A DNA stretch of 64,000 nucleotides from Desulfobacteraceae bacterium. Lineage in GTDB: Bacteria > Desulfobacterota > Desulfobacteria > Desulfobacterales > SURF-7. The notes beneath the pieces were generated by a model. That model was not told the DNA's origin. It saw nothing but the letters and a program-made list of their open reading frames with translations, and searched no databases. Location: the NCBI GenBank assembly GCA_003599865.1, contig QZKS01000012.1, forward strand, positions 5,875 to 69,874, in the 5' to 3' direction. The translations under genes were made by a program, and so were the position numbers. This document shows positions 51,542 through 64,000 of this stretch, piece after piece; the first letter of the stretch is position 1; every line of letters starts with the position of its first letter.

Positions 51542-52456
51542 TTATCCCGGACTTTCTCCGGCCATCCATCGGAGAATCTTCCGGGCAAATTCCTTTCCGC
51601 AGTCTTCCTGCAGAAAATGGCCGCCGCCCTTGATGGTGGTATGGGGCTGACCGCTTGCGCCGGCCACCTTCTTTTGAAATACCTGCTCTCCTCCGCGGGT
51701 AATCGGATCGCCGTCACTGAACATGGTGATAAAGGGTTTGTCAAATAACCCCAGAACCTTCCATGCCTCCTGGTTTGCCGATGCCGAAGGGTCATCCGGA
51801 TCAATGGTGACAAGGGAGGGAAAGATACGCGCCGCCTCCTTATAGGAATCGTCCGGGAAAGGCGCGTTATAGGCTGCCATCACTTCTGCGGAAAGCGGCT
51901 TCCGGCATCCCATGGCAACAATGGTTCCGGCGTCAAAATCAGGTACTTCCACGGAGAATTTCCGCCATTCCAGAAACGCATCGGGAATCCGGGTCTCTCC
52001 GGTAGGCAACCCGGTGTTCGCGGCCACAACCCGTGCGAACCGGTCCGGGTCACCCGCAACCAGCCGCAGACCGATCAGACCGCCCCAGTCCTGGCAGACC
52101 AGGGTAATCCTCTCCAGTCCCATTTGATCCAGCCAGGCCTTCATCCAGTCCACATGCCGCTGATAGGTATACTCTTTTCGATCCGTGAGCTTGTCCGAAC
52201 GCCCGAATCCGATCAGGTCCGGTGCAACGGCCCGATACCCGGCATCGACAAAAACAGGAATCATTTTCCGGTACAGATAGGACCAGCTTGGTTCACCATG
52301 CATCATCAGCACGGGTTCTCCGTCCTTCGGGCCCTCATCCACATAATGGATACGCAGTTTTCCGACTTCCCCGTCCGGTATGATCCTGTAATTCGGCTGA
52401 AAAGGGTAATCCGGGAGATTCCGGAAACGCTCATCCGGCGTTCTGATCATTTTCAT
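51542..52456 (-). CDS. Haloalkane dehalogenase-family alpha/beta hydrolase
   Basis: RTPDERFRNLPDYPFQPNY...IHYVDEGP...MHGEPSWSYLYRKMIP and the nucleophile elbow VCQDWGG are typical of HLD-I enzymes. Confidence 0.8.
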   Translation of the reverse strand: MKMIRTPDERFRNLPDYPFQPNYRIIPDGEVGKLRIHYVDEGPKDGEPVLMMHGEPSWSYLYRKMIPVFVDAGYRAVAPDLIGFGRSDKLTDRKEYTYQRHVDWMKAWLDQMGLERITLVCQDWGGLIGLRLVAGDPDRFARVVAANTGLPTGETRIPDAFLEWRKFSVEVPDFDAGTIVAMGCRKPLSAEVMAAYNAPFPDDSYKEAARIFPSLVTIDPDDPSASANQEAWKVLGLFDKPFITMFSDGDPITRGGEQVFQKKVAGASGQPHTTIKGGGHFLQEDCGKEFARKILRWMAGESPG

Positions 52457-54886: not shown

Positions 54887-54936
54887 CGAAGCCTCATCAA
54901 CCGGATGATACGGAAGATGAGGCTTCGAAAAAAAAA
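54887..54936. repeat. Inverted repeat CGAAGCCTCATC...GATGAGGCTTCG followed by A9, just 3' of the acyl-CoA synthetase gene
   Basis: 12-bp perfect arms at 54887-54898 and 54916-54927, then nine A at 54928-54936. It has the same core (CGARGCCTC / GAGGCYTCG + A-run) and the same position relative to a minus-strand stop codon as the 53112 repeat. Confidence 0.85.
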
Positions 54937-54964: not shown

Positions 54965-56794
54965 CTAAAACCGATACTTCCCGGCGACAATATCCTGATA
55001 CAACGACTTGTTCAGGGGGATGTATTCCTTTTTTCCCGGGAGCATGGCAAAAAGAGGTTCGGGAATCACACCGGGATCAAAGCCTTCATTATGCAGCACC
55101 ACCTTCTTGACTTTAAAGGTCGGCGTTGTCTCGATCTCTTTTTTAAACCGTATAAATTTGGGAATGGCATAAGGAGGAAGAACCCTGTGCAGGGTTTCCG
55201 CCAGTTCCTTGAGATCAAACGAGTCTTCAGGGACGGAAGGAATGATGGCTGCCATTCCGGCCCGGCCGTCCGTACCCGGAATCCGCACTCCATAGACGGC
55301 AGCCTGCTCGACATGTTCCATGGTATTGATGGTCTCCTCCACTTCCGTTGTGGAAACATTCTCTCCTTTCCATCGAAAGGTATCTCCCAGTCGATCACTG
55401 AACTGGATATGCCGGTATCCCAGGTCCCGAACAAAATCCCCGGTATTCAGCCAGATATCTCCTTGTTTGAATACATCCCTCCAGATTTTCTGCTCCGATG
55501 CCTTGGGGTCCGTATACCCGTGAAAAGGAGTCTTGTCCGATATCTCCCCCAGCAGGATGCCGGACTCCCCTTTCTTGACCCGCGGCATATAACCGTTTGC
55601 ATCCAATATCGGTTTTTCATTTTCAATATCATAGCGAACAATGGCAAAAGGCGTCAGACACATGCCGACGGTATTGTCGATATTAAACAGATTGACAAAT
55701 GCAAAACCAAATTCGGTGGCACCATAGAGTTCGGAAATCTGCCGGATGGCAAAACGGGATTTGAATTCGCTCCAGATATCCGGGCGGAGCCCGTTACCGA
55801 TGCATTTTTTCATGGGATTGCGGCCATCAGACAGGCTTTCCGGCTGGTTCAGCAGATACCGGCACAACTCCCCGATATACACAAACGCCGTGGCATTGAA
55901 TTTCTCAGCATCTTTCCAGAACTCGCCGGCAGAAAATTTTCTGCGGATGGCAAACGCCGAACCCATGGAGGACGCAACCGTCCAGCCGACGCAAAAACCA
56001 GTGGTATGAAAAAGAGGAAGCGGGCAGTACAGCACATCATCGGTCTTCATGTTCATCAATAGTCTTCCGAGACCGAACATGGCCGAAACCCAGCGCCGGT
56101 TTCCCATGATCGCGGCTTTGGGCATTCCGGTTGTTCCGGAGGTGAAGATATAGCAAATGGGATCTTTGGCCTGTATGGTTCCTGTGGTTTTGGGATTGTC
56201 GGCCGGCATGCGGGCGGCAGCAAGAGGCAGGTCAATGTATCCTTTTGGCGCAGGGTTTTTGCCGCCATCCGGAACGAAATAAAAGGTTTCCTCACCGCTC
56301 AATTTCAGATCCGGCCGGACGGTTTCAAAGGCATCGACGAGTTCTTCGCCGATGATAAACCGCAATCCCTTTGTCAGGCTGATGCTGTGCAGCAGGACCT
56401 GATTCCGCTGATTGGTATTGATCAAGGAGGCGATGGCGCCGATTTTGGCAAGGGCTCCTGCCACCATTAAAAATTCAGGCCGGTTTTCCAGCATCACCAC
56501 TACCGGTTCGCCTTTTTTCACGCCCTCCGACAACAGATAATGGCAATAACGGTTGACAGCCTCGTTGTATTCCCGGTGTGTGAGGCGTTCATTTTCACAG
56601 AGAATGGCCGGCCTGTCCGGATACAGTCGCGCGTTTTCCTCGATCTTCCATCCCAGGGATAAATAATCATCGTCCTTGACATGGAGTGCTGATTTTATCG
56701 CGTTGACCACTGACGGCAACCGTACCAGTTTGGAAACAATCCCCGGAACCAGACTGCCGAACGTAACAAGATCCTTATGATTCAATGCTGCCAT
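54965..56794 (-). CDS. Long/very-long-chain acyl-CoA synthetase, FATP (SLC27)-like
   Basis: AMP-binding motif YIFTSGTTGMPKAA and later GDTFRWKGENVSTTEVE, which is characteristic of fatty-acid-transport-protein-type synthetases; 609 aa. Confidence 0.85.
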   Translation of the reverse strand: MAALNHKDLVTFGSLVPGIVSKLVRLPSVVNAIKSALHVKDDDYLSLGWKIEENARLYPDRPAILCENERLTHREYNEAVNRYCHYLLSEGVKKGEPVVVMLENRPEFLMVAGALAKIGAIASLINTNQRNQVLLHSISLTKGLRFIIGEELVDAFETVRPDLKLSGEETFYFVPDGGKNPAPKGYIDLPLAAARMPADNPKTTGTIQAKDPICYIFTSGTTGMPKAAIMGNRRWVSAMFGLGRLLMNMKTDDVLYCPLPLFHTTGFCVGWTVASSMGSAFAIRRKFSAGEFWKDAEKFNATAFVYIGELCRYLLNQPESLSDGRNPMKKCIGNGLRPDIWSEFKSRFAIRQISELYGATEFGFAFVNLFNIDNTVGMCLTPFAIVRYDIENEKPILDANGYMPRVKKGESGILLGEISDKTPFHGYTDPKASEQKIWRDVFKQGDIWLNTGDFVRDLGYRHIQFSDRLGDTFRWKGENVSTTEVEETINTMEHVEQAAVYGVRIPGTDGRAGMAAIIPSVPEDSFDLKELAETLHRVLPPYAIPKFIRFKKEIETTPTFKVKKVVLHNEGFDPGVIPEPLFAMLPGKKEYIPLNKSLYQDIVAGKYRF

Positions 56795-56810
56795 TCATCC
56801 TCCCCTTCTG

Positions 56811-57992
56811 TTAGATAATCAGTTTGGAAATCACTTCTCTCATGATCTCCGATGTTCCTCCGCCAATGGACAAAATCCGGTTATCCCGGTACAGTCTCTC
56901 CACTACATATTCCCTCGTAAATCCGTACCCGCCGAAAAGCTGAACCGCATCAAAGGTCACCTTGTCGCTCACGTTGGTAGCAAAATTCTTGGCCATGGAT
57001 ACTTCCTTGACCTGATCCACACCGGCATTCATCTTTGCCGCTACCCGGTAGGTGAACTCCGTGCTTGCTTCAACCAGGGTCGCCATTTCGGCAAGCTTGT
57101 GCCTTGTTACCTGGAATCCCGTGAGTTTTTTCCCAAACGCCTCTCTCTGCTTTGCATACTTCAAGGCTTCTTCAAAGGCAATACGGGCGGTCATATTGGC
57201 CATGATGCAGATCGCCAGCCGTTCGCTCTGGAAATTCTCCATGATCATATAAAAGCCCTGGTTTTCCTGCCCGATCAGATTTTTTTTGGGAACCCGGCAA
57301 TTGTCGAAAAAAATTTCCGCCGTATCCGAACACCACCATCCGGTTTTATGGAGCTTTTTACCAACGGCATATCCGGGCGTATTGGACTCAATCACCAGAA
57401 AACTGATGCCGCCATATCCTTCCCCGCCGGTGCGGACCGCCGCAGTCAACTGATCTGCTCTTACGCCGCTGGTGATAAAGGTTTTGCTGCCGTTTACGAT
57501 AAAATCATCTCCATCCCGAACCGCGGTTGTTTTGATATTGGCCACATCGGAACCGCCGCCCGGTTCGGTAATGCCCAGCGCCGCTATCCGTTCACCTGCC
57601 AGAACCGGCTTGACAAACCGGTCATGCTGCTCCGGTGTCCCATGCCGCACAAGAGGAGGGAGGGCAATATCCAGAGAACCGATCCCGGCAACCAGTCCGG
57701 CAGATCCGGACCGCATCATTTCTTCGGTATAGGCAATCTTCAAAAAAAGATCTCCGGGCGTCCCGCCAAGCGCTTCCGGATATCCGATTCCGAGAAATCC
57801 CAGGTCGGCCATCTTGCGGTAAAGCCCTCTTGGAAACTCTTCCGCCTCCTCCCACTCATTGATATTGGGAAGGATTTCCTTTTTCACAAACTCCCGAACC
57901 GCCTTCCGGAGCAACTGATGCTCTTTTCCGAAATACTCCTGTAACGAACCGCTATCTGCTTTTGCTATGCTCACAAGTTTTCCTCCAATCAT
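56811..57992 (-). CDS. Acyl-CoA dehydrogenase
   Basis: ALGITEPGGGSDV, FITSG and QLFGGYGFTREYVVERLYRDNRILSIGGGTSEI are ACAD signatures. Confidence 0.9.
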   Translation of the reverse strand: MIGGKLVSIAKADSGSLQEYFGKEHQLLRKAVREFVKKEILPNINEWEEAEEFPRGLYRKMADLGFLGIGYPEALGGTPGDLFLKIAYTEEMMRSGSAGLVAGIGSLDIALPPLVRHGTPEQHDRFVKPVLAGERIAALGITEPGGGSDVANIKTTAVRDGDDFIVNGSKTFITSGVRADQLTAAVRTGGEGYGGISFLVIESNTPGYAVGKKLHKTGWWCSDTAEIFFDNCRVPKKNLIGQENQGFYMIMENFQSERLAICIMANMTARIAFEEALKYAKQREAFGKKLTGFQVTRHKLAEMATLVEASTEFTYRVAAKMNAGVDQVKEVSMAKNFATNVSDKVTFDAVQLFGGYGFTREYVVERLYRDNRILSIGGGTSEIMREVISKLII

Positions 57993-58028
57993 TCATTCCG
58001 TAAACAAAATGCAAACTCTTTACCGTCA

Positions 58029-58796
58029 TTATTTTTTCTTCAGCCATTGTTTAAACTTGAATGTCTCAAATATGATGATGATCTTGAAAAGGAAGGGCAG
58101 ATATCCGTTGATGATGTTCAAGCTAAGGAACAGCTTGGACGGGAATATGGAATTTTTGCCTTTGATCAGACCCTTTACAATTGTTCCTGCAACTTTATCC
58201 GGAGTCTGGGAAGGCCAGGGTATCGGTGTTTTTTCACCGGCCTGCTCAAAAAATTTGGTCCGGGTGGCAATGGGGTAGATCATCTGAATTTTCTGCCCCC
58301 TTGAAAGCTCACAGCGATACCCGGTTGCAAATCCGTGAAGTGCCGCCTTGGTGGATGCATACAGGGTATATCCCGGATAAGAAAGAAAACTCATGGCACT
58401 TGCCGTAATGGCCACCTGAAACGGCTTTTTTCCGTGGAGTGCTTTCATTTTTTCAGCGACATAAATCGCTGAAAAAACATTGGTCTGATATATTTTCTCG
58501 ATCTCTTTCCAATTGGGCCCGGCAATCTCTCCATAGTAGGCAAACCCGGCATTGCAGACAAAAAGATCTATCGTATTCCATTTCTCCAGTGCAAACTTGA
58601 ACAAGGCATCAATGTTTTCCGGCTTGGAAATATCGCATGGATATTTGGTCACATGATCATGATGGAAATCGATTTTTTCTATTGATCTGGCAACCGCGAT
58701 AATGTTGCAGTTGTGCAGTAACAGTTCTTTGACAAGGTCCAGGCCGATGCCTGATGATGCGCCGGTAACAATAATGTTTTTCTGGTTCAGATCCAT
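58029..58796 (-). CDS. SDR oxidoreductase with hydrophobic C-terminal tail
   Basis: VTGASSGIG, NAG and YASTKAA catalytic motifs. The C-terminus LFLSLNIINGYLPFLFKIIIIFETF looks like a membrane anchor. Confidence 0.85.
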   Translation of the reverse strand: MDLNQKNIIVTGASSGIGLDLVKELLLHNCNIIAVARSIEKIDFHHDHVTKYPCDISKPENIDALFKFALEKWNTIDLFVCNAGFAYYGEIAGPNWKEIEKIYQTNVFSAIYVAEKMKALHGKKPFQVAITASAMSFLSYPGYTLYASTKAALHGFATGYRCELSRGQKIQMIYPIATRTKFFEQAGEKTPIPWPSQTPDKVAGTIVKGLIKGKNSIFPSKLFLSLNIINGYLPFLFKIIIIFETFKFKQWLKKK

Positions 58797-58835
58797 GCTT
58801 TGCTCCCTTCCTCTTTTATCGCTTGATTGTTGCGT

Positions 58836-60452
58836 TCATGACTGCCTTGTTTCCTTTAAGACGTATTTCTTCATACCAGGGATATGGATTTCATTCCAGA
58901 AGTGATTCCAGTTCAGTTTTGACGTATCAAAATCAAAGGACACCTGATCGGCTGGGGAAAGTTTTTTAAATAATTCCATTGAGTTGTCAGTGCAGAATAC
59001 CCAGCTGTTCATGGTGTATGCGGAGTACAGGTCGGAAAAACGGCATACCCGTTCCGCTCTTTTTCTGCTTTTGGTCACCCATCCCATCATATTCCGATAG
59101 GATTTCACGCTTTTTGCAAACTGACACTTCATCAGTGCCTTCTCTGCGAAACATAAGGGATACAGGTACTGCCATTGTATCTTCTGATTAAAGGCTTCCG
59201 GACTCTTATAGAATTTAATCGGGCGGACTTGAACAGGCTTCCCGCGATCCGATTTCATGGGATCTTTGTCAAAATAGGAGCGCCATATCCTGCTGATTTC
59301 CGACAGGGTTATCGGATTGGTCTGGCTGGTTCCGATCTGATACACATAGGGTTTGGATGCATCTGTCAGCACCGCGCACGCGGTAACGATCAGGCTGACC
59401 ACATAATCCACCGGAACTGTATCGATCAGGGATTTTTCCGAACCGGGAAACGCCTTGATCAGTCCCTTTCCCATGCCTACAATCAGCGGTTCCACCAGAT
59501 GGAATCCTTCCAGCCAGCCGGGCGACGGGTCTTTTACCGCACTGGTGATTCCCGGAGGCCGGACAATGGCCAGGGGAACATTTCCCTGATGTTTGACCAG
59601 GAGCATTTCTCCCATGGCCTTGCTCAGGCAGTAGGAATCGGTCCACCCATGAAGGTTTGCCCGCTGTATCCCGTAGTCCGACATTTGGGAATGAATATGT
59701 TTTTTTCGAAGGACCTCAATCTGCTCCTCCAGCGAATGGCAGATATCATCACGGCAGCCGAGCTGAAATTTCGCCTCTTTTTTGAATTGCTGCTGCATGG
59801 CCGCACCATAGGTTTCCTTCTCCACTGTTTTTGCATAGGAAAAGGCAGCATTAATTTCATCTTCCAGGGAAAACGGTATCTTTTGTCCAAGTTCATTGGC
59901 AATGCTCTGATTCGGATCAAAAGGACGTTCCATGACCTTACCGGAGCGTTTGCCGTTCACATATGCGGATGATATATAGACAAACCGCGGATGAGGAGTA
60001 ACCTCCTTTCCGAATTCCAGCAGACGCTTTGTAGCCAGAGAGTTCACCCGTATGGAATAATCCAGCCGTTCATCCCATGAAACCTGTGCCGCCACATGAA
60101 TAATGGCATCCAGTCCTCCAAAAACCGCCTGCCTTTCCGTTTCCGGTATCCCGAGGTCATCCTGAAAAAGATCACATGGAACCGCATCAATCTTTTTCTG
60201 CATGAAAGACAAGAAATCCTTTTCCCGTTTCCGCAGCCGGTCAAAAATTCCGGATGGGAGGATATCCTTTTCAAACCGGGACAAGGCTCCTTCCCGGGTA
60301 AATCCCTTGTCTTTGGAAGGCCGCACCAGCAGGATAATCTTTTCCAGATCCGGAGACTCCCATAAGAGCTTTTCCAGCACAACCTTGCCCAGAAAGCCGG
60401 TGGTTCCGGTCAGTAAGACTCTCTTGCCTTTGTAATATTCCTGGATGTTCAT
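58836..60452 (-). CDS. Fatty acyl-CoA reductase (FAR; NAD_binding_4 + C-terminal sterile-type domain), eukaryote-like
   Basis: MNIQEYYKGKRVLLTGTTGFLGKVVLEKLL closely parallels the animal and plant FAR N-terminus. YISSAYV and the YCLSK catalytic YxxxK are present. The ATG at 60452 has a GAAAGGAAAG RBS; the track start at 60509 has no support. Confidence 0.85.
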   Translation of the reverse strand: MNIQEYYKGKRVLLTGTTGFLGKVVLEKLLWESPDLEKIILLVRPSKDKGFTREGALSRFEKDILPSGIFDRLRKREKDFLSFMQKKIDAVPCDLFQDDLGIPETERQAVFGGLDAIIHVAAQVSWDERLDYSIRVNSLATKRLLEFGKEVTPHPRFVYISSAYVNGKRSGKVMERPFDPNQSIANELGQKIPFSLEDEINAAFSYAKTVEKETYGAAMQQQFKKEAKFQLGCRDDICHSLEEQIEVLRKKHIHSQMSDYGIQRANLHGWTDSYCLSKAMGEMLLVKHQGNVPLAIVRPPGITSAVKDPSPGWLEGFHLVEPLIVGMGKGLIKAFPGSEKSLIDTVPVDYVVSLIVTACAVLTDASKPYVYQIGTSQTNPITLSEISRIWRSYFDKDPMKSDRGKPVQVRPIKFYKSPEAFNQKIQWQYLYPLCFAEKALMKCQFAKSVKSYRNMMGWVTKSRKRAERVCRFSDLYSAYTMNSWVFCTDNSMELFKKLSPADQVSFDFDTSKLNWNHFWNEIHIPGMKKYVLKETRQS

Positions 60453-60683
60453 AGTCTTTCCTTTCAAAATCTTGCAATCATTCCAGTATGGCATCCTGTA
60501 AACGGGCATGCCGTATTGTAAAAGCCGTCAATAGAATTTGCGGCCCTGAAATTCAAACCAGCCAACAGTCCATGATCATGCCGGCATTAGCATATCAAGA
60601 AGCGTACCAGGGGATAAATAATTATATATTTATTATTTTCAATAGGTTAAAAACGCTTGCCTTCTCCGGAAAAATCGAATAGA

Positions 60684-60717
60684 TTTCAATTGTGAAACGA
60701 GTATTTCAATTATGAAA
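60684..60717. promoter_or_regulatory. Two tandem 14-bp palindromes (candidate activator binding sites) in the divergent intergenic region
   Basis: TTTCAATTGTGAAA (60684-60697) and TTTCAATTATGAAA (60704-60717). Each is TTTCA-N4-TGAAA, with centres 20 bp apart. Confidence 0.5.
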
Positions 60718-60816
60718 CTATTTTTTGTTTGCAATTGGCAGAAAAATCAAAATCCGGCAAACGGACAAACCAGCTCATGCACAAATAGAACTACAGAAGA
60801 ATAGAGGAAAAGAAGC

Positions 60817-62442
60817 ATGCTTGCCAAAGATTTACGGATCAATGAACTGATTCAGAGAGACCCCAAGACCGGCTTCCCGCAATACGGGGGGCAGAGGCTG
60901 CTGATTACCGGCGTGGCAACCCTGAAACGGTTTTATGAAGACCTTTACAATATGATCGGACCGGAAAGATCCAGAATCATCTTTACGCGGATGGGTTATG
61001 ACAACGGACTGGCCGGAGGGCTGGCGCTCAAGAATATGTATGAATTCGAGACCTCCGTGCAACTGATCAAAGCGCTTCCGATTGTGACCCCCATGGTGGG
61101 TATGGCAAGAGAAGTGAACAGCCGGTTTGAATATGATCCGGAAAAAAATATTTTTAACTATACCGGCGAATGGACACAATCCTTTGAATCCCTGATCTGG
61201 AACCTGCATCAAAAAGGCCCGAGCCGGACACCTCTCTGCCACATGCTGTGCGGCCTGGCCGCAGGCTATTTCAGCGCCGTGATCGGGCGGGACGTGCTGG
61301 TCAAGGAATTGTCGTGCCGGGCTCAGGGAAACGAATTCTGCCGGTTTGAGGCCCGCCCCATCGAAGAATGGGATGAGGAAAAGGACTTTTTCCATGAGAT
61401 CATCCGGACCGATTCCCTGGATGAGGAGCTGGAATTCCTGAGAAGCGAACTGAACCGGTCCCAGCAGTTCCTGCAAAAGCAGCAGCAGGAAATTCAGCGG
61501 TTAAAACAGCAGACATGCCGGCCGGAAACCATCGAGCACGGCATCATCTACCGCAGCCCCGACATGGCAAAACTGATCGAACTGGCGGAAATCGCCGCCC
61601 CCAATGACTCCACCATTCTGATCCAGGGAGAGAGCGGGACCGGAAAAGAACTGATTGCACGATATATCCATGAATGTTCCAAGCGGTCCGACGCACCGTT
61701 TCTGGCCATCAACTGCGCGGCCATCCCGGCCACACTCATCGAATCCGAACTGTTCGGGCATGAAAAAGGCGCCTTTACCGGAGCGGAAAAAAGCAAGCCC
61801 GGCCTTTTTATCCAGGCCTGCAGCGGCACCATCTTCCTGGATGAAATCGGAGAACTGCCGTTTGAAGTACAGGCCAAGCTCCTGCGCGTTCTCCAGCAGA
61901 AAGAGGTCATGCCCCTGGGGAGTGTTCAGAAGCAATCCGTGACCGCCAGGACGATTGCGGCAACCAATCAGGATCTTCAGCAGATGGTGGCGGACGGAAC
62001 ATTCCGGAAAGACCTGTTCTACCGGGTATCGGTTTTCCCTCTTTTTATCACGCCTCTCCGGCAGCGGCGGGAGGATATCCTGGTTCTGGCGCGTCACTTC
62101 CTGTCCCGCCTCAATGAAGATCACCCCGGTTTCACACCCGAAGCCGTGAGACGGATGCAGCGCTACAACTGGCCGGGAAACATCCGGGAGCTGGAAAACT
62201 GCGTGGAATACGCTTTTATTCTGTCCAGAGACACCCCGATACAGATAGAACATCTTCCGGTTTCCATCAACTTGGAAACAGACGATTCCTTCACAGGAAT
62301 GATCAGTGATTTCCCGACACCCAAGGAGCTGATCCGACGATATGCCAAACAGGTTGTCAGCCATACGGAAGGAAATAAAACCAGGGCTGCCGAAATGATG
62401 GGGATCAGCATCCCGACCCTTTGGCGGTATCTAAAGCCGTAA
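60817..62442 (+). CDS. Sigma-54-dependent transcriptional activator with XylR-N/V4R-type ligand-sensing N-domain
   Basis: The N-terminal ~190 aa ends in the Cys-containing V4R-like CHMLCGLAAGYFSAVIG...CRAQGNEFCRFEA. AAA+ domain with GESGTGKE and GAFTGA. C-terminal HTH AAEMMGISIPTLWRYLK. Confidence 0.85.
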   Translation: MLAKDLRINELIQRDPKTGFPQYGGQRLLITGVATLKRFYEDLYNMIGPERSRIIFTRMGYDNGLAGGLALKNMYEFETSVQLIKALPIVTPMVGMAREVNSRFEYDPEKNIFNYTGEWTQSFESLIWNLHQKGPSRTPLCHMLCGLAAGYFSAVIGRDVLVKELSCRAQGNEFCRFEARPIEEWDEEKDFFHEIIRTDSLDEELEFLRSELNRSQQFLQKQQQEIQRLKQQTCRPETIEHGIIYRSPDMAKLIELAEIAAPNDSTILIQGESGTGKELIARYIHECSKRSDAPFLAINCAAIPATLIESELFGHEKGAFTGAEKSKPGLFIQACSGTIFLDEIGELPFEVQAKLLRVLQQKEVMPLGSVQKQSVTARTIAATNQDLQQMVADGTFRKDLFYRVSVFPLFITPLRQRREDILVLARHFLSRLNEDHPGFTPEAVRRMQRYNWPGNIRELENCVEYAFILSRDTPIQIEHLPVSINLETDDSFTGMISDFPTPKELIRRYAKQVVSHTEGNKTRAAEMMGISIPTLWRYLKP

Positions 62443-62542: not shown

Positions 62543-64000
62543 ATGACCTTTTCCGATATTATCGCCCGAACACTGCTGCTGGATCTGGAAACAACGCGGA
62601 CCGGAAGAATCCGTCACATCGGAGCTGTTTTCGGTAATCACGTATTTGAAAAAACCGAAAAAGCCGGTTCAAAGGCGGTGCTGGACCAGCTCGGCTTCCT
62701 TGCCCGGGATGCCGACTTTATTCTGGGTCACAATCTGCTGGGCCATGATTTCCCGATTCTGAAAGCATCATCACCGGATCTTCCGCTTCTCAACAAGCCC
62801 GTAATCGATACGCTTTATCTTTCACCGCTTGCCTTTCCTCAAAACCCTTACCACCGACTGGTCAAGAATTACAAACTGGTCCGTTCCTCCGTCAACAACC
62901 CGGTTGAAGATGCCAGGCTGGCGGCTTCTGTTTTTGCCGACCAGTGGGATAGTTTTACGGCCTTGGCAGGCGAAAAACCGGCGCTCATCGATTTTAACCG
63001 TTTCTGTTTTCATGAAAGCATGTTCAACAACTTTTCCGGAACAGGGCTTGCAACGGTTTTTTCCATGATTACCCCGGAAGTGATCCAATCGCCGGAACAG
63101 GCATGGCAATGTTTCACAAATCACTCCACAGGAATCGTATGCAGCAATGCCGCCCGGGAAACAATACCCCGGCTGTTATCCAATCCGGAAAAACGTCCGG
63201 CAGCCGCATACAGCCTGGCATGGCTTCAGGTTGCCGGAGGCAATTCCGTCCTTCCGCCCTGGGTCCGCCATCGATTTCCGGAAATACCAGGCATCATCAA
63301 AGCATTGCGGGAAAGCCCATGCGGCAGCCCAGACTGCGATTACTGTTCGGAAAACCATGACCCGGAAAAACAACTGGCCCGTTTTTTCGGTTATCCCTCA
63401 TTTCGGGAAAAGCCGCTCAGCCGGAAGGGGCAAAGCCTGCAGAAAGCCATTGTTCAGGATTGCATGGGAGACAAACCGGTTCTGGGGATTCTGCCCACCG
63501 GCGGCGGAAAATCCCTTTGCTACCAGCTTCCGGCACTAGTTCGATACTGGCGTCGCGGAACCCTGACAGTGGTGATCTCCCCTCTCCAGGCCCTGATGAA
63601 AGACCAGGTGGATAACCTCGTCAAAAAGACCGGAACCCTTTTTGCCGAATCCATCTCCGGACTCCAGACATCACCCGAACGCGGAGAAGTGTTTGAACGG
63701 ATCAGGCTGGGTGATACGGCCATTTTATATATATCTCCGGAACAGCTCCGCAGCACCGGCGTCCGAAATATTCTGCGTCAGCGCGAAATCGGATGCTGGG
63801 TGTTTGATGAAGCACACTGCCTGTCCAAATGGGGTCATGATTTCAGACCGGACTATCTGTATGCCGCCCGCTTCATCCGGGAGTTCGCCAATGAGCAGAA
63901 TCAACCCCTGCCGCCGGTATGCTGCTTTACGGCCACTGCCAAAACAAGCGTCATTGAGGAAATTGAAGCCCATTTTCGGGAAGAACTCGACCAGGAGTTG
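62543..64000 (+). CDS. RecQ-family DNA helicase with N-terminal DEDD (DnaQ-like) 3'-5' exonuclease domain; 3' end lies beyond the window
   Basis: Absent from the ORF track (no stop in window); 486 codons are open to the window edge. Exonuclease motifs LLLDLETT, ILGHNLLGHDF and NPVEDARLAA. Helicase motifs ILPTGGGKSLCYQLPAL (I), VISPLQALMKDQ (Ia), DEAHCLSKWGHDFRPDY (II, DEAH) and FTATA (III). Confidence 0.85.
   Translation, partial: MTFSDIIARTLLLDLETTRTGRIRHIGAVFGNHVFEKTEKAGSKAVLDQLGFLARDADFILGHNLLGHDFPILKASSPDLPLLNKPVIDTLYLSPLAFPQNPYHRLVKNYKLVRSSVNNPVEDARLAASVFADQWDSFTALAGEKPALIDFNRFCFHESMFNNFSGTGLATVFSMITPEVIQSPEQAWQCFTNHSTGIVCSNAARETIPRLLSNPEKRPAAAYSLAWLQVAGGNSVLPPWVRHRFPEIPGIIKALRESPCGSPDCDYCSENHDPEKQLARFFGYPSFREKPLSRKGQSLQKAIVQDCMGDKPVLGILPTGGGKSLCYQLPALVRYWRRGTLTVVISPLQALMKDQVDNLVKKTGTLFAESISGLQTSPERGEVFERIRLGDTAILYISPEQLRSTGVRNILRQREIGCWVFDEAHCLSKWGHDFRPDYLYAARFIREFANEQNQPLPPVCCFTATAKTSVIEEIEAHFREELDQEL

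Follow-up and report, generated by a model that had tools for sequence, protein, structure and literature searches.

A putative fatty-alcohol operon with a divergent V4R-type sigma-54 activator in a Desulfobacteraceae bacterium, with wax esters as a possible end product

We describe here a group of five genes in a 64,000-nucleotide stretch of the genome of a Desulfobacteraceae bacterium (assembly GCA_003599865.1, contig QZKS01000012.1, positions 5,875 to 69,874 of the forward strand). This whole stretch is called the window in what follows, and positions are counted from its first letter. Four minus-strand genes encode a fatty acyl-CoA reductase (FAR), a short-chain dehydrogenase/reductase (SDR), an acyl-CoA dehydrogenase (ACAD) and a long-chain fatty acyl-CoA synthetase (FACS), and a divergent plus-strand gene encodes a sigma-54 enhancer-binding activator. 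The core of the operon is very probably a module that leads from fatty acids to fatty alcohols, in which the synthetase would feed the FAR with the help of the SDR. Taken as a whole, the locus could be a dedicated, ligand-inducible operon that turns free long-chain fatty acids into fatty alcohols with wax esters as the sink, a complete statement that we put forward tentatively, with doubt slightly outweighing confidence.

The enzyme families involved, as well as bacterial FAR-based alcohol and wax pathways, are already known. What is new is a distinct FAR clade, carried among the sampled Desulfobacterales by only two genera, both of them strictly anaerobic sulfate reducers; a V4R sigma-54 activator dedicated to a FAR operon, with conserved upstream activating sequences (UAS) and promoter; an SDR that shares the distribution of the FAR within the order; and the joining of the FAR unit with a beta-oxidation gene pair. 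Within the literature searched, the fatty alcohols, wax esters and non-isoprenoid alkyl glycerol ethers of anoxic sediments have rarely been traced to genes of anaerobes. In this respect the locus is a compact candidate, with one activator, one promoter and two co-evolving reductases, and Desulfatibacillum, a cultured relative of the lineage, serves as the bacterial ether-lipid model.

Gene content of the operon

The open reading frame (ORF) list, together with Pfam and NCBIfam profile searches, gave four minus-strand ORFs and one divergent plus-strand ORF, in the order activator, then FAR-SDR-ACAD-FACS on the opposite strand. The features of the locus are the following:

54887..54927, minus strand: hairpin with a 12-bp stem past the FACS stop (fold -37 kcal/mol, z = -2.9)
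54965..56794, minus strand: FACS, long-chain acyl-CoA synthetase of the FadD6/FATP type (609 aa; NF006134 PRK08279)
56811..57992, minus strand: ACAD, acyl-CoA dehydrogenase of butyryl-CoA-dehydrogenase-like type (393 aa; three ACAD Pfam domains)
58029..58796, minus strand: classical SDR (255 aa; adh_short 2.5e-30)
58836..60452, minus strand: FAR, alcohol-forming fatty acyl-CoA reductase by family (538 aa; PF07993 and PF03015)
60595..60609, minus strand: candidate sigma-54 promoter TGGTAC-N5-TTGA with a degenerate -12 element, conserved in relatives
60684..60717, no strand assigned: two TTTCA-N4-TGAAA palindromes, candidate activator binding sites (UAS), centres 20 bp apart
60817..62442, plus strand: sigma-54 enhancer-binding activator of the XylR/DmpR family (541 aa; five Pfam domains)

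An initial annotation of this DNA, made from the letters and the ORF list, had described four closely spaced minus-strand genes with gaps of 16-39 nt, and the distances measured here are 39 nt (FAR-SDR), 36 nt (SDR-ACAD) and 16 nt (ACAD-FACS). No strong internal terminators were found in the operon, and no Rfam family matched its 5' untranslated region or its genes. The hairpin past the FACS stop has its U9 run upstream of the stem and not after it (54887-54936, minus strand), so it is not a canonical intrinsic terminator; it likely marks the 3' end of the operon.

The hidden Markov model scan that the initial annotation had proposed bore out its description of the FAR as a protein with a sterile-type C-terminal domain: both NAD_binding_4 (PF07993; 6e-61, 206 bits) and Sterile (PF03015; 5e-18, 65.6 bits) exceed their cut-offs. 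The closest solved structure is 7eoz, a 'Fatty acyl-CoA reductase' (9e-74), and an alignment of 16 clade members showed the motifs TGTTGFLG, SS161-162 and YxxxK (Y274 and K278) to be invariant. With respect to the start of the protein, the mechanically called ORF begins at 60509, and an ATG at 60452 is preceded by a AAAGGAAAG ribosome-binding site. The starts of the homologs all coincide with this ATG (consensus MxIxEYFxGKR), and the stretch between 60509 and 60452 is deleted in the close relative L001. For these three reasons we place the FAR start at 60452, which gives a protein of 538 aa.

About 20 near relatives of the FAR were found at 44-97% identity, and all the named ones come from Desulfobacterales; the next matches are plant FARs (~34%) and Marinobacter-type FARs (~29%). 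In a maximum-likelihood tree the clade lies within a bacterial assemblage (SH-aLRT 91), with the plant FARs outside. The earlier label of a eukaryote-like FAR therefore holds for the family, which is that of the eukaryotic FARs, and not for the position in the tree, which leaves a recent transfer from eukaryotes unsupported. The clade is a deep bacterial lineage, distinct from other bacterial FARs.

The SDR was also recovered as previously described, that is, as an adh_short protein with a hydrophobic tail. This tail is a conserved hydrophobic/amphipathic segment at residues ~224-242, followed by a KKK end, and it is a family-wide feature. A search of the ESM Atlas with the SDR returned generic SDR clusters only. 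In both reductases an Arg follows beta-2 (LLVRPSK in the FAR, AVARS in the SDR), from which we read the two as presumably NADPH-type, reductive enzymes. The SDR is a candidate fatty-aldehyde reductase or alkyl-dihydroxyacetone-phosphate (alkyl-DHAP) reductase.

The last two genes were likewise recovered in the families first assigned to them. The ACAD contains all three ACAD domains; no NCBIfam equivalog reached its cut-off, and the best matches were butyryl-CoA-dehydrogenase-like. The FACS, annotated earlier as a FATP-type acyl-CoA synthetase, scored 747.5 bits on NF006134 PRK08279 (long-chain acyl-CoA synthetase), passing the cut-off of 625, and 567 bits on the FadD6 'exception' model, below the cut-off of 975.

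Distribution and gene order

The phyletic distribution was examined in 301 genomes across the order Desulfobacterales. The FAR clade was present in six of them: three of the genus to which the window belongs and all three of Desulfatibacillum. The orthologs of the SDR are distributed identically. Three other genomes (L001-L003), from congeners, keep the whole block of activator and FAR-SDR-ACAD-FACS in the same order, together with the RecQ-like gene at its side, with amino-acid identities of 79-91%. The adjacency of FAR and SDR was also seen on three contigs (L088, L101 and L103) of a metagenome scan whose matches were mostly short contigs. The conserved block, together with this repeated adjacency, argues that the gene arrangement is more than chance.

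In Desulfatibacillum the activator is also divergent from the FAR, and the two proteins are 58% and 50% identical, respectively, between the genera. There the FAR is followed by an acyl-CoA synthetase of the FAA1 type, and neither SDR nor ACAD is found at the locus; the SDR of this genus, 60-62% identical, is not linked to the FAR, and no UAS or sigma-54 motif was found upstream of it. Thus the synthetase that follows the FAR differs in family, FadD6-type in the genus of the window and FAA1-type in Desulfatibacillum, and these two independent pairings argue for a coupling between acyl-CoA synthetase and FAR. Two associations persist across genera, that of the activator, the FAR and some acyl-CoA synthetase at one locus, and that of the SDR with the FAR within the genome. 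The first of them corresponds to the part of the earlier proposal, acyl activation followed by reduction to fatty alcohol, that found support in both genera.

L004 and L086 represent a third FAR lineage, in which the activator is missing. A gene for an HHxxxDG acyltransferase, distantly alignable over its full length to WS/DGAT, lies upstream of the FAR there, accompanied by genes for a metallo-beta-lactamase-fold protein, a methyltransferase and either FMN_red or LysE. Beyond the Desulfobacterales, Clostridia and Syntrophomonadaceae have related SDRs (45-55% identity).

The ACAD and the FACS behave in another way, since their orthologs (70-74% identity) are found in relatives that have no FAR, in one of which they adjoin each other within a beta-oxidation cluster. 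We therefore see two units joined in the operon, FAR-SDR on the one hand and a catabolic ACAD-FACS pair on the other, the latter being apparently separable and of beta-oxidation type. The cluster in question (L085; relative G111, contig C67) contains, besides the two orthologs, a TetR gene, four SCP-x-type thiolase-like genes, a MaoC/ChsH2-type hydratase and a 1005-aa fusion of AMP-ligase, SCP2 and zinc ribbon. In this sulfate reducer the cluster looks suited to degrade a bulky or sterol-like side chain by beta-oxidation.

Activator and regulatory region

The divergent gene had been described as a sigma-54 activator with a V4R domain, and the profiles agree: the protein contains XylR_N, V4R, Sigma54_activat, AAA_lid_14 and HTH_8, with a Walker A motif and GAFTGA. 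Its sensor domain matches the solved sensors of DmpR/CapR, MopR and PoxR at 4e-25 to 1e-20 (DmpR/CapR 6iy8, 4e-25; MopR, 5e-22) and retains the Zn site (C141/E164/C167/C175). In our reading of the alignment to 5kbe, the pocket Trp is retained, and Thr/Pro stand at the position of the phenol-anchoring histidine of MopR, which we take to be His106. This histidine is not conserved, and the effector is probably not a phenol.

The palindrome TTTCA-N4-TGAAA occurs twice in the window (0.28 matches expected), both times in the 307-nt divergent intergenic region, and this is its sole paired occurrence in the 5.0-Mb genome. The palindromes are conserved in the congeners L001 and L002 and in the Desulfatibacillum loci L005 and L006. 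About 75 nt downstream of them, toward the FAR, lies CTGGTACGCTTCTTGATA. The corresponding element is TGGTAC-N5-TTGAT in L001 and L002, at the same relative position, and TGGCAC-N5-TTGG in L005 and L006, at the equivalent position. In all, TGG(T/C)AC-N5-TTG is kept in five loci of two genera, always with a TTTCA-N4-TGAAA palindrome and a GGCAAG box upstream of it, and because of this conservation we regard it as probably a real sigma-54 promoter with a degenerate -12 element.

No TTTCA-N4-TGAAA site, allowing up to one mismatch, was found near the WS/DGAT, AGPS-like, second FAR or Ger-type genes of the genome, which are presented below. A single one-mismatch site upstream of the PlsB-type gene was judged to be due to chance, and a regulon shared with other lipid genes was rejected. 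The activator thus looks dedicated to the operon, and a biosensor for a lipid-like effector could be built on it as a scaffold.

Wax-ester and ether-lipid genes elsewhere in the genome

The genome contains a single WS/DGAT gene (561 aa; PF03007, 123 bits, and PF06974, 147 bits; C-terminal match to DUF5763) on contig C17 (L016:9778-11463). It is divergent from a gene for a 222-aa phasin/apolipoprotein-like protein, the two lying in L016:8865-11463. Downstream of the WS/DGAT gene, two proteins of ~690 aa with only weak Rossmann-type matches are encoded, and a 573-aa alpha/beta hydrolase ~5 kb away. Taken together, these genes resemble a candidate neutral-lipid-body locus in an anaerobe.

A second type of FAR is also encoded (674 aa; NAD_binding_4 fused to adh_short, PRK07201-like; contig C27, L017:9571-11595). 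Its gene adjoins that of a TRAP-type DctP solute-binding protein, with a 3-hydroxyacyl-CoA dehydrogenase gene nearby. Only 10 of the 301 genomes have this type, nearly all of them in the two families that carry the operon FAR. We considered whether the FAR and SDR of the operon represent a split version of such a fusion; this is an analogy only, since the SDR is 22% identical to the SDR half of the fusion, a generic value.

As regards ether lipids, the initial annotation had seen no AGPS or GNPAT equivalent. This stands for the 64-kb window, where neither was found clustered or fused with the FAR as it is in Myxococcus and most eukaryotes. It does not extend to the genome, in which the search that had been suggested for AGPS-like oxidases and PlsA/Ger homologs was productive. 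An AGPS-like flavoprotein of 629 aa is encoded on contig C24 (L050:9749-11638), unlinked to the operon. Its best solved relatives are AGPS structures (2uuu, 3e-68; 4bby, 1e-56), followed at a distance by D-lactate dehydrogenase (1e-25), and residues equivalent to Arg419, Tyr578 and the SHHHGVG loop are retained in it. The gene belongs to an apparent operon (L050:6017-11638) with a FadR-type regulator, a GlpD-like glycerol-3-phosphate dehydrogenase and an FGGY kinase, which could serve ether-lipid synthesis or, in reverse, the salvage or cleavage of alkylglycerols (kinase, then dehydrogenase, then alkyl/acyl exchange). Orthologs at 55-86% identity are common, and AGPS-like genes overall were found in 122 of the 301 genomes, that is, in all six FAR genomes and in 116 others. 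In addition, contig C11 encodes a PlsB/GPAT(GNPAT)-type acyltransferase of 881 aa, and contigs C98 and C4 (L048, L049) carry two ORFs of ~1450 aa with DUF2229 and PlsA/Ger-type architecture.

Neighbouring genes and other observations

Next to the activator gene lies a gene for a RecQ-type helicase with an N-terminal extension of ~270 aa (62543-64000, plus strand), 84-87% identical in L001 and L002. On the other side, ~2.5 kb downstream of the operon and past an NHL-repeat gene, an alpha/beta hydrolase (51542-52456, minus strand) passed the cut-off of 265 bits for PRK00870, a model of the haloalkane dehalogenase subfamily, with a score of 474.6. Haloalkane dehalogenases produce primary alcohols. 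In the Desulfatibacillum genome G185 (L063:246-2478), an SDR gene shares a few bases with the beginning of a gene for a 472-aa PapA/Condensation-like acyltransferase of the HHxxxDG superfamily, whose Pfam matches are sub-threshold; it is a possible alcohol acyltransferase in a genus that has no WS/DGAT. The idea that the organism is a fumarate-adding alkane degrader found no support in the two enzymes examined out of the seven PFL-like glycyl-radical enzymes that the genome encodes: both were of the PFL2/glycerol-dehydratase type, and the alkylsuccinate synthase MasD, to which they are not close, gave only 1e-28 to 1e-45.

Proposed function and alternative explanations

In the mechanism that we favour, the XylR/DmpR-type activator would bind a hydrophobic effector and, from the twin TTTCA-N4-TGAAA sites, open the sigma-54 promoter that precedes the FAR by ~140 nt. 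Acyl-CoA formed by the FadD6/FATP-type synthetase would then be reduced by the NADPH-type FAR to the aldehyde and further to the alcohol. The SDR, co-evolving with the FAR and apparently membrane- or lipid-associated, would most likely complete or assist the step from aldehyde to alcohol, or else reduce a keto-lipid that arises later. Part of the same acyl-CoA pool may be diverted to oxidation by the ACAD, which would have entered the operon along with the FACS, both coming from a beta-oxidation cluster. The alcohols would most likely become wax esters through the single WS/DGAT encoded beside the phasin-like gene. In this scheme the gene identities, the synteny, the regulatory motifs and the phyletic patterns are observations, and the flux direction, the cofactors, the part played by the SDR, the effector and the end product are deduced from them.

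The fatty-alcohol core is the firmer part of this proposal. It is supported by the recruitment of a synthetase beside the FAR on two occasions, by the Arg signature in both reductases and by the characterised members of the family, since to our knowledge every characterised two-domain FAR forms alcohols. With regard to the sink, the genome has enzymes for both wax esters and ether lipids, and the sequence alone cannot say which of them receives the alcohols; the co-occurrence of WS/DGAT and AGPS-like genes with the FAR across genomes does not settle the matter either. We consider wax esters at least as likely as ether lipids. The WS/DGAT, the phasin-like gene, the nearby alpha/beta-hydrolase gene and the second FAR are the same toolkit as in the wax-ester-forming Marinobacter, and this Marinobacter-like double-FAR toolkit, the phasin-like neighbour of the WS/DGAT and the acyltransferase beside the FAR in the third lineage are the reasons for favouring wax esters. 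If they are indeed the products, neutral-lipid storage would extend to strictly anaerobic sulfate reducers.

Several observations weigh against this proposal. None of the three Desulfatibacillum genomes (100% complete) has a PF03007 WS/DGAT, though FAR and SDR are present, and only a sub-threshold PapA/Condensation-like acyltransferase was found in that genus. The WS/DGAT gene of the genome studied here lacks both linkage to the operon and a UAS-like site. Across the order, 48 of the 301 genomes have WS/DGAT, and only two of these 48 also have the FAR clade of the operon. An ACAD has no role in the synthesis of alcohols or waxes, and XylR-type activators usually govern catabolic operons. Finally, no report of FAR activity or of wax esters in sulfate reducers was found in the literature searched. 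The earlier notion of an ether-lipid or wax module is thus sustained in its fatty-alcohol front end and not in its full extent, the ACAD-FACS pair being apparently separable and catabolic.

An unlikely alternative assigns the FAR and the SDR to the fatty-alcohol and alkyl-DHAP-reductase arms of an oxygen-independent ether-lipid route of the AGPS type. In this route the PlsB/GNPAT-type enzyme would acylate DHAP, the AGPS-like protein would exchange the acyl group for the FAR-made alcohol, the SDR would reduce the alkyl-DHAP and the FACS would re-activate the freed fatty acid. In its most specific form, which we hold to be a shade less probable, the FAR-SDR unit would supply the alcohol and the alkyl-DHAP reduction to the widespread AGPS-like/GlpD/FGGY-kinase operon, as a second, eukaryote-type ether route alongside Ger, switched by a V4R activator that senses a hydrophobic effector. 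The AGPS-like enzyme appears catalytically competent, with the key residues kept, and the distribution of the SDR across the sampled genomes of the order matches that of the FAR exactly, even though such a FAR would need no helper merely for alcohol formation; these two points make the route more plausible than could be told when the DNA was first read. The GlpD-like neighbour of the AGPS-like gene makes DHAP, a PlsB/GPAT-type acyltransferase is available, and D. alkenivorans, from Desulfatibacillum, one of the FAR-bearing genera, has membranes in which ether lipids amount to 70-90% (PMC11181052). However, Ger, a modified PlsA of D. alkenivorans, alone turns sn-1 esters into mono-ethers in E. 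coli (PMC13159169) and gives diether traces under more sensitive analysis, with further enzymes still expected by the authors (PMC11150832). The alkyl ethers of Desulfatibacillum are already explained experimentally by Ger without any need of a fatty alcohol, and two Ger/PlsA-type ORFs are present here as well. The AGPS-like enzyme, in 122 of the 301 genomes as against at most 10 for either FAR type, is not generally FAR-dependent, given its far wider distribution. Its gene shares no UAS with the FAR and is not clustered with it either; Myxococcus differs in the latter respect, with a FAR-GNPAT fusion encoded in one cluster with AGPS (PMC13012113). SDRs related to ours are also found in Clostridia. 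The existence of Ger, the much wider spread of AGPS-like genes and the lack of linkage or shared regulation together weaken the route. Should the alcohols nevertheless feed the AGPS-like enzyme, the locus would represent a second anaerobic ether-lipid route and would bear on the other contributors to diether formation.

We find it improbable that the pathway ends with the alcohols or aldehydes, that these go into some other lipid, for example esters formed by a PapA-like acyltransferase, or that the module buffers toxic free fatty acids or aldehydes. Such a role would suit the presence of the FAR without WS/DGAT in Desulfatibacillum, the PapA/Condensation-like HHxxxDG acyltransferases of that genus, the HHxxxDG acyltransferase beside the FAR in L004, and the methyltransferase, metallo-beta-lactamase-fold protein and FMN_red or LysE that accompany the FAR of the L004/L086 lineage; this is a residual category, however, and no particular product is indicated. 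Quite improbable, in our opinion, is a catabolic operon induced by a long-chain alcohol, an aldehyde or a hydrocarbon-derived compound. Here the SDR would oxidise the alcohol, the FAR would run in reverse as a CoA-acylating aldehyde dehydrogenase that spares the ATP of activation, and the ACAD and FACS would feed beta-oxidation. The type of regulator fits this idea, given the usual targets of XylR/DmpR-family activators, some of which (BmoR) sense alcohols and aldehydes; so do the ACAD-FACS orthologs in the TetR/thiolase/SCP2/MaoC-ChsH2 cluster of the FAR-less relative, and cultured Desulfatibacillum species degrade alkanes and alkenes. The cofactor signatures and the recurrent synthetase do not fit. 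Both reductases carry the NADPH-type Arg, we know of no FAR of this family that runs in reverse, and a reversed FAR would make the linked acyl-CoA synthetase redundant, yet such a synthetase accompanies the FAR in both genera. Moreover, the Desulfatibacillum locus keeps the FAR and the synthetase with neither ACAD nor SDR in the operon.

Comparison with known systems

The FAR resembles the Marinobacter-type enzyme in its two-domain family, its intact nucleotide-binding and S/Y/K motifs and its place in the bacterial assemblage of the tree, and the genome resembles the Marinobacter system in having WS/DGAT and a second reductase of NAD_binding_4 plus adh_short. It differs in its low identity to that enzyme (~29%) and in forming a separate deep clade in two genera of anaerobic sulfate reducers. 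It also differs in its operon with SDR, ACAD and FadD6-type synthetase and in its dedicated V4R sigma-54 activator, and WS/DGAT is not present in all carriers.

The activator shares with XylR, DmpR and MopR the domain order, the Zn-site residues, GAFTGA and the divergent layout, as well as, by prediction, tandem palindromic UAS and a -24/-12 target promoter. Unlike in those systems, the phenol-anchoring histidine of MopR is not conserved according to our alignment, the -12 element is TTGA or TTGG and not TTGC, and the presumed target is a lipid-reducing instead of an aromatic-catabolic operon.

In comparison with the eukaryotic and myxobacterial FAR-GNPAT-AGPS pathway, known in Myxococcus from an AGPS-FARAT operon (M. 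xanthus MXAN_1676-1674; PMC13012113, PMC9131029), the genome studied here likewise encodes a FAR, an AGPS-like protein, an acyltransferase of the PlsB/GNPAT family and a candidate reductase. Its genes are dispersed, however, with no fusion between FAR and acyltransferase. The AGPS-like gene stands with GlpD, FGGY kinase and FadR genes and is far more widespread than the FAR, and the host is a strict anaerobe that also has Ger-type candidates. These two PlsA/Ger-type ORFs parallel Ger and Ger2 of D. alkenivorans. The Ger system of D. alkenivorans and Thermotoga (PMC13159169) is the demonstrated alkyl-ether route in one of the FAR-bearing genera and shares organisms and ecology with the operon, whereas its chemistry and protein families are unrelated to those of the FAR and Ger is not encoded at the FAR locus.

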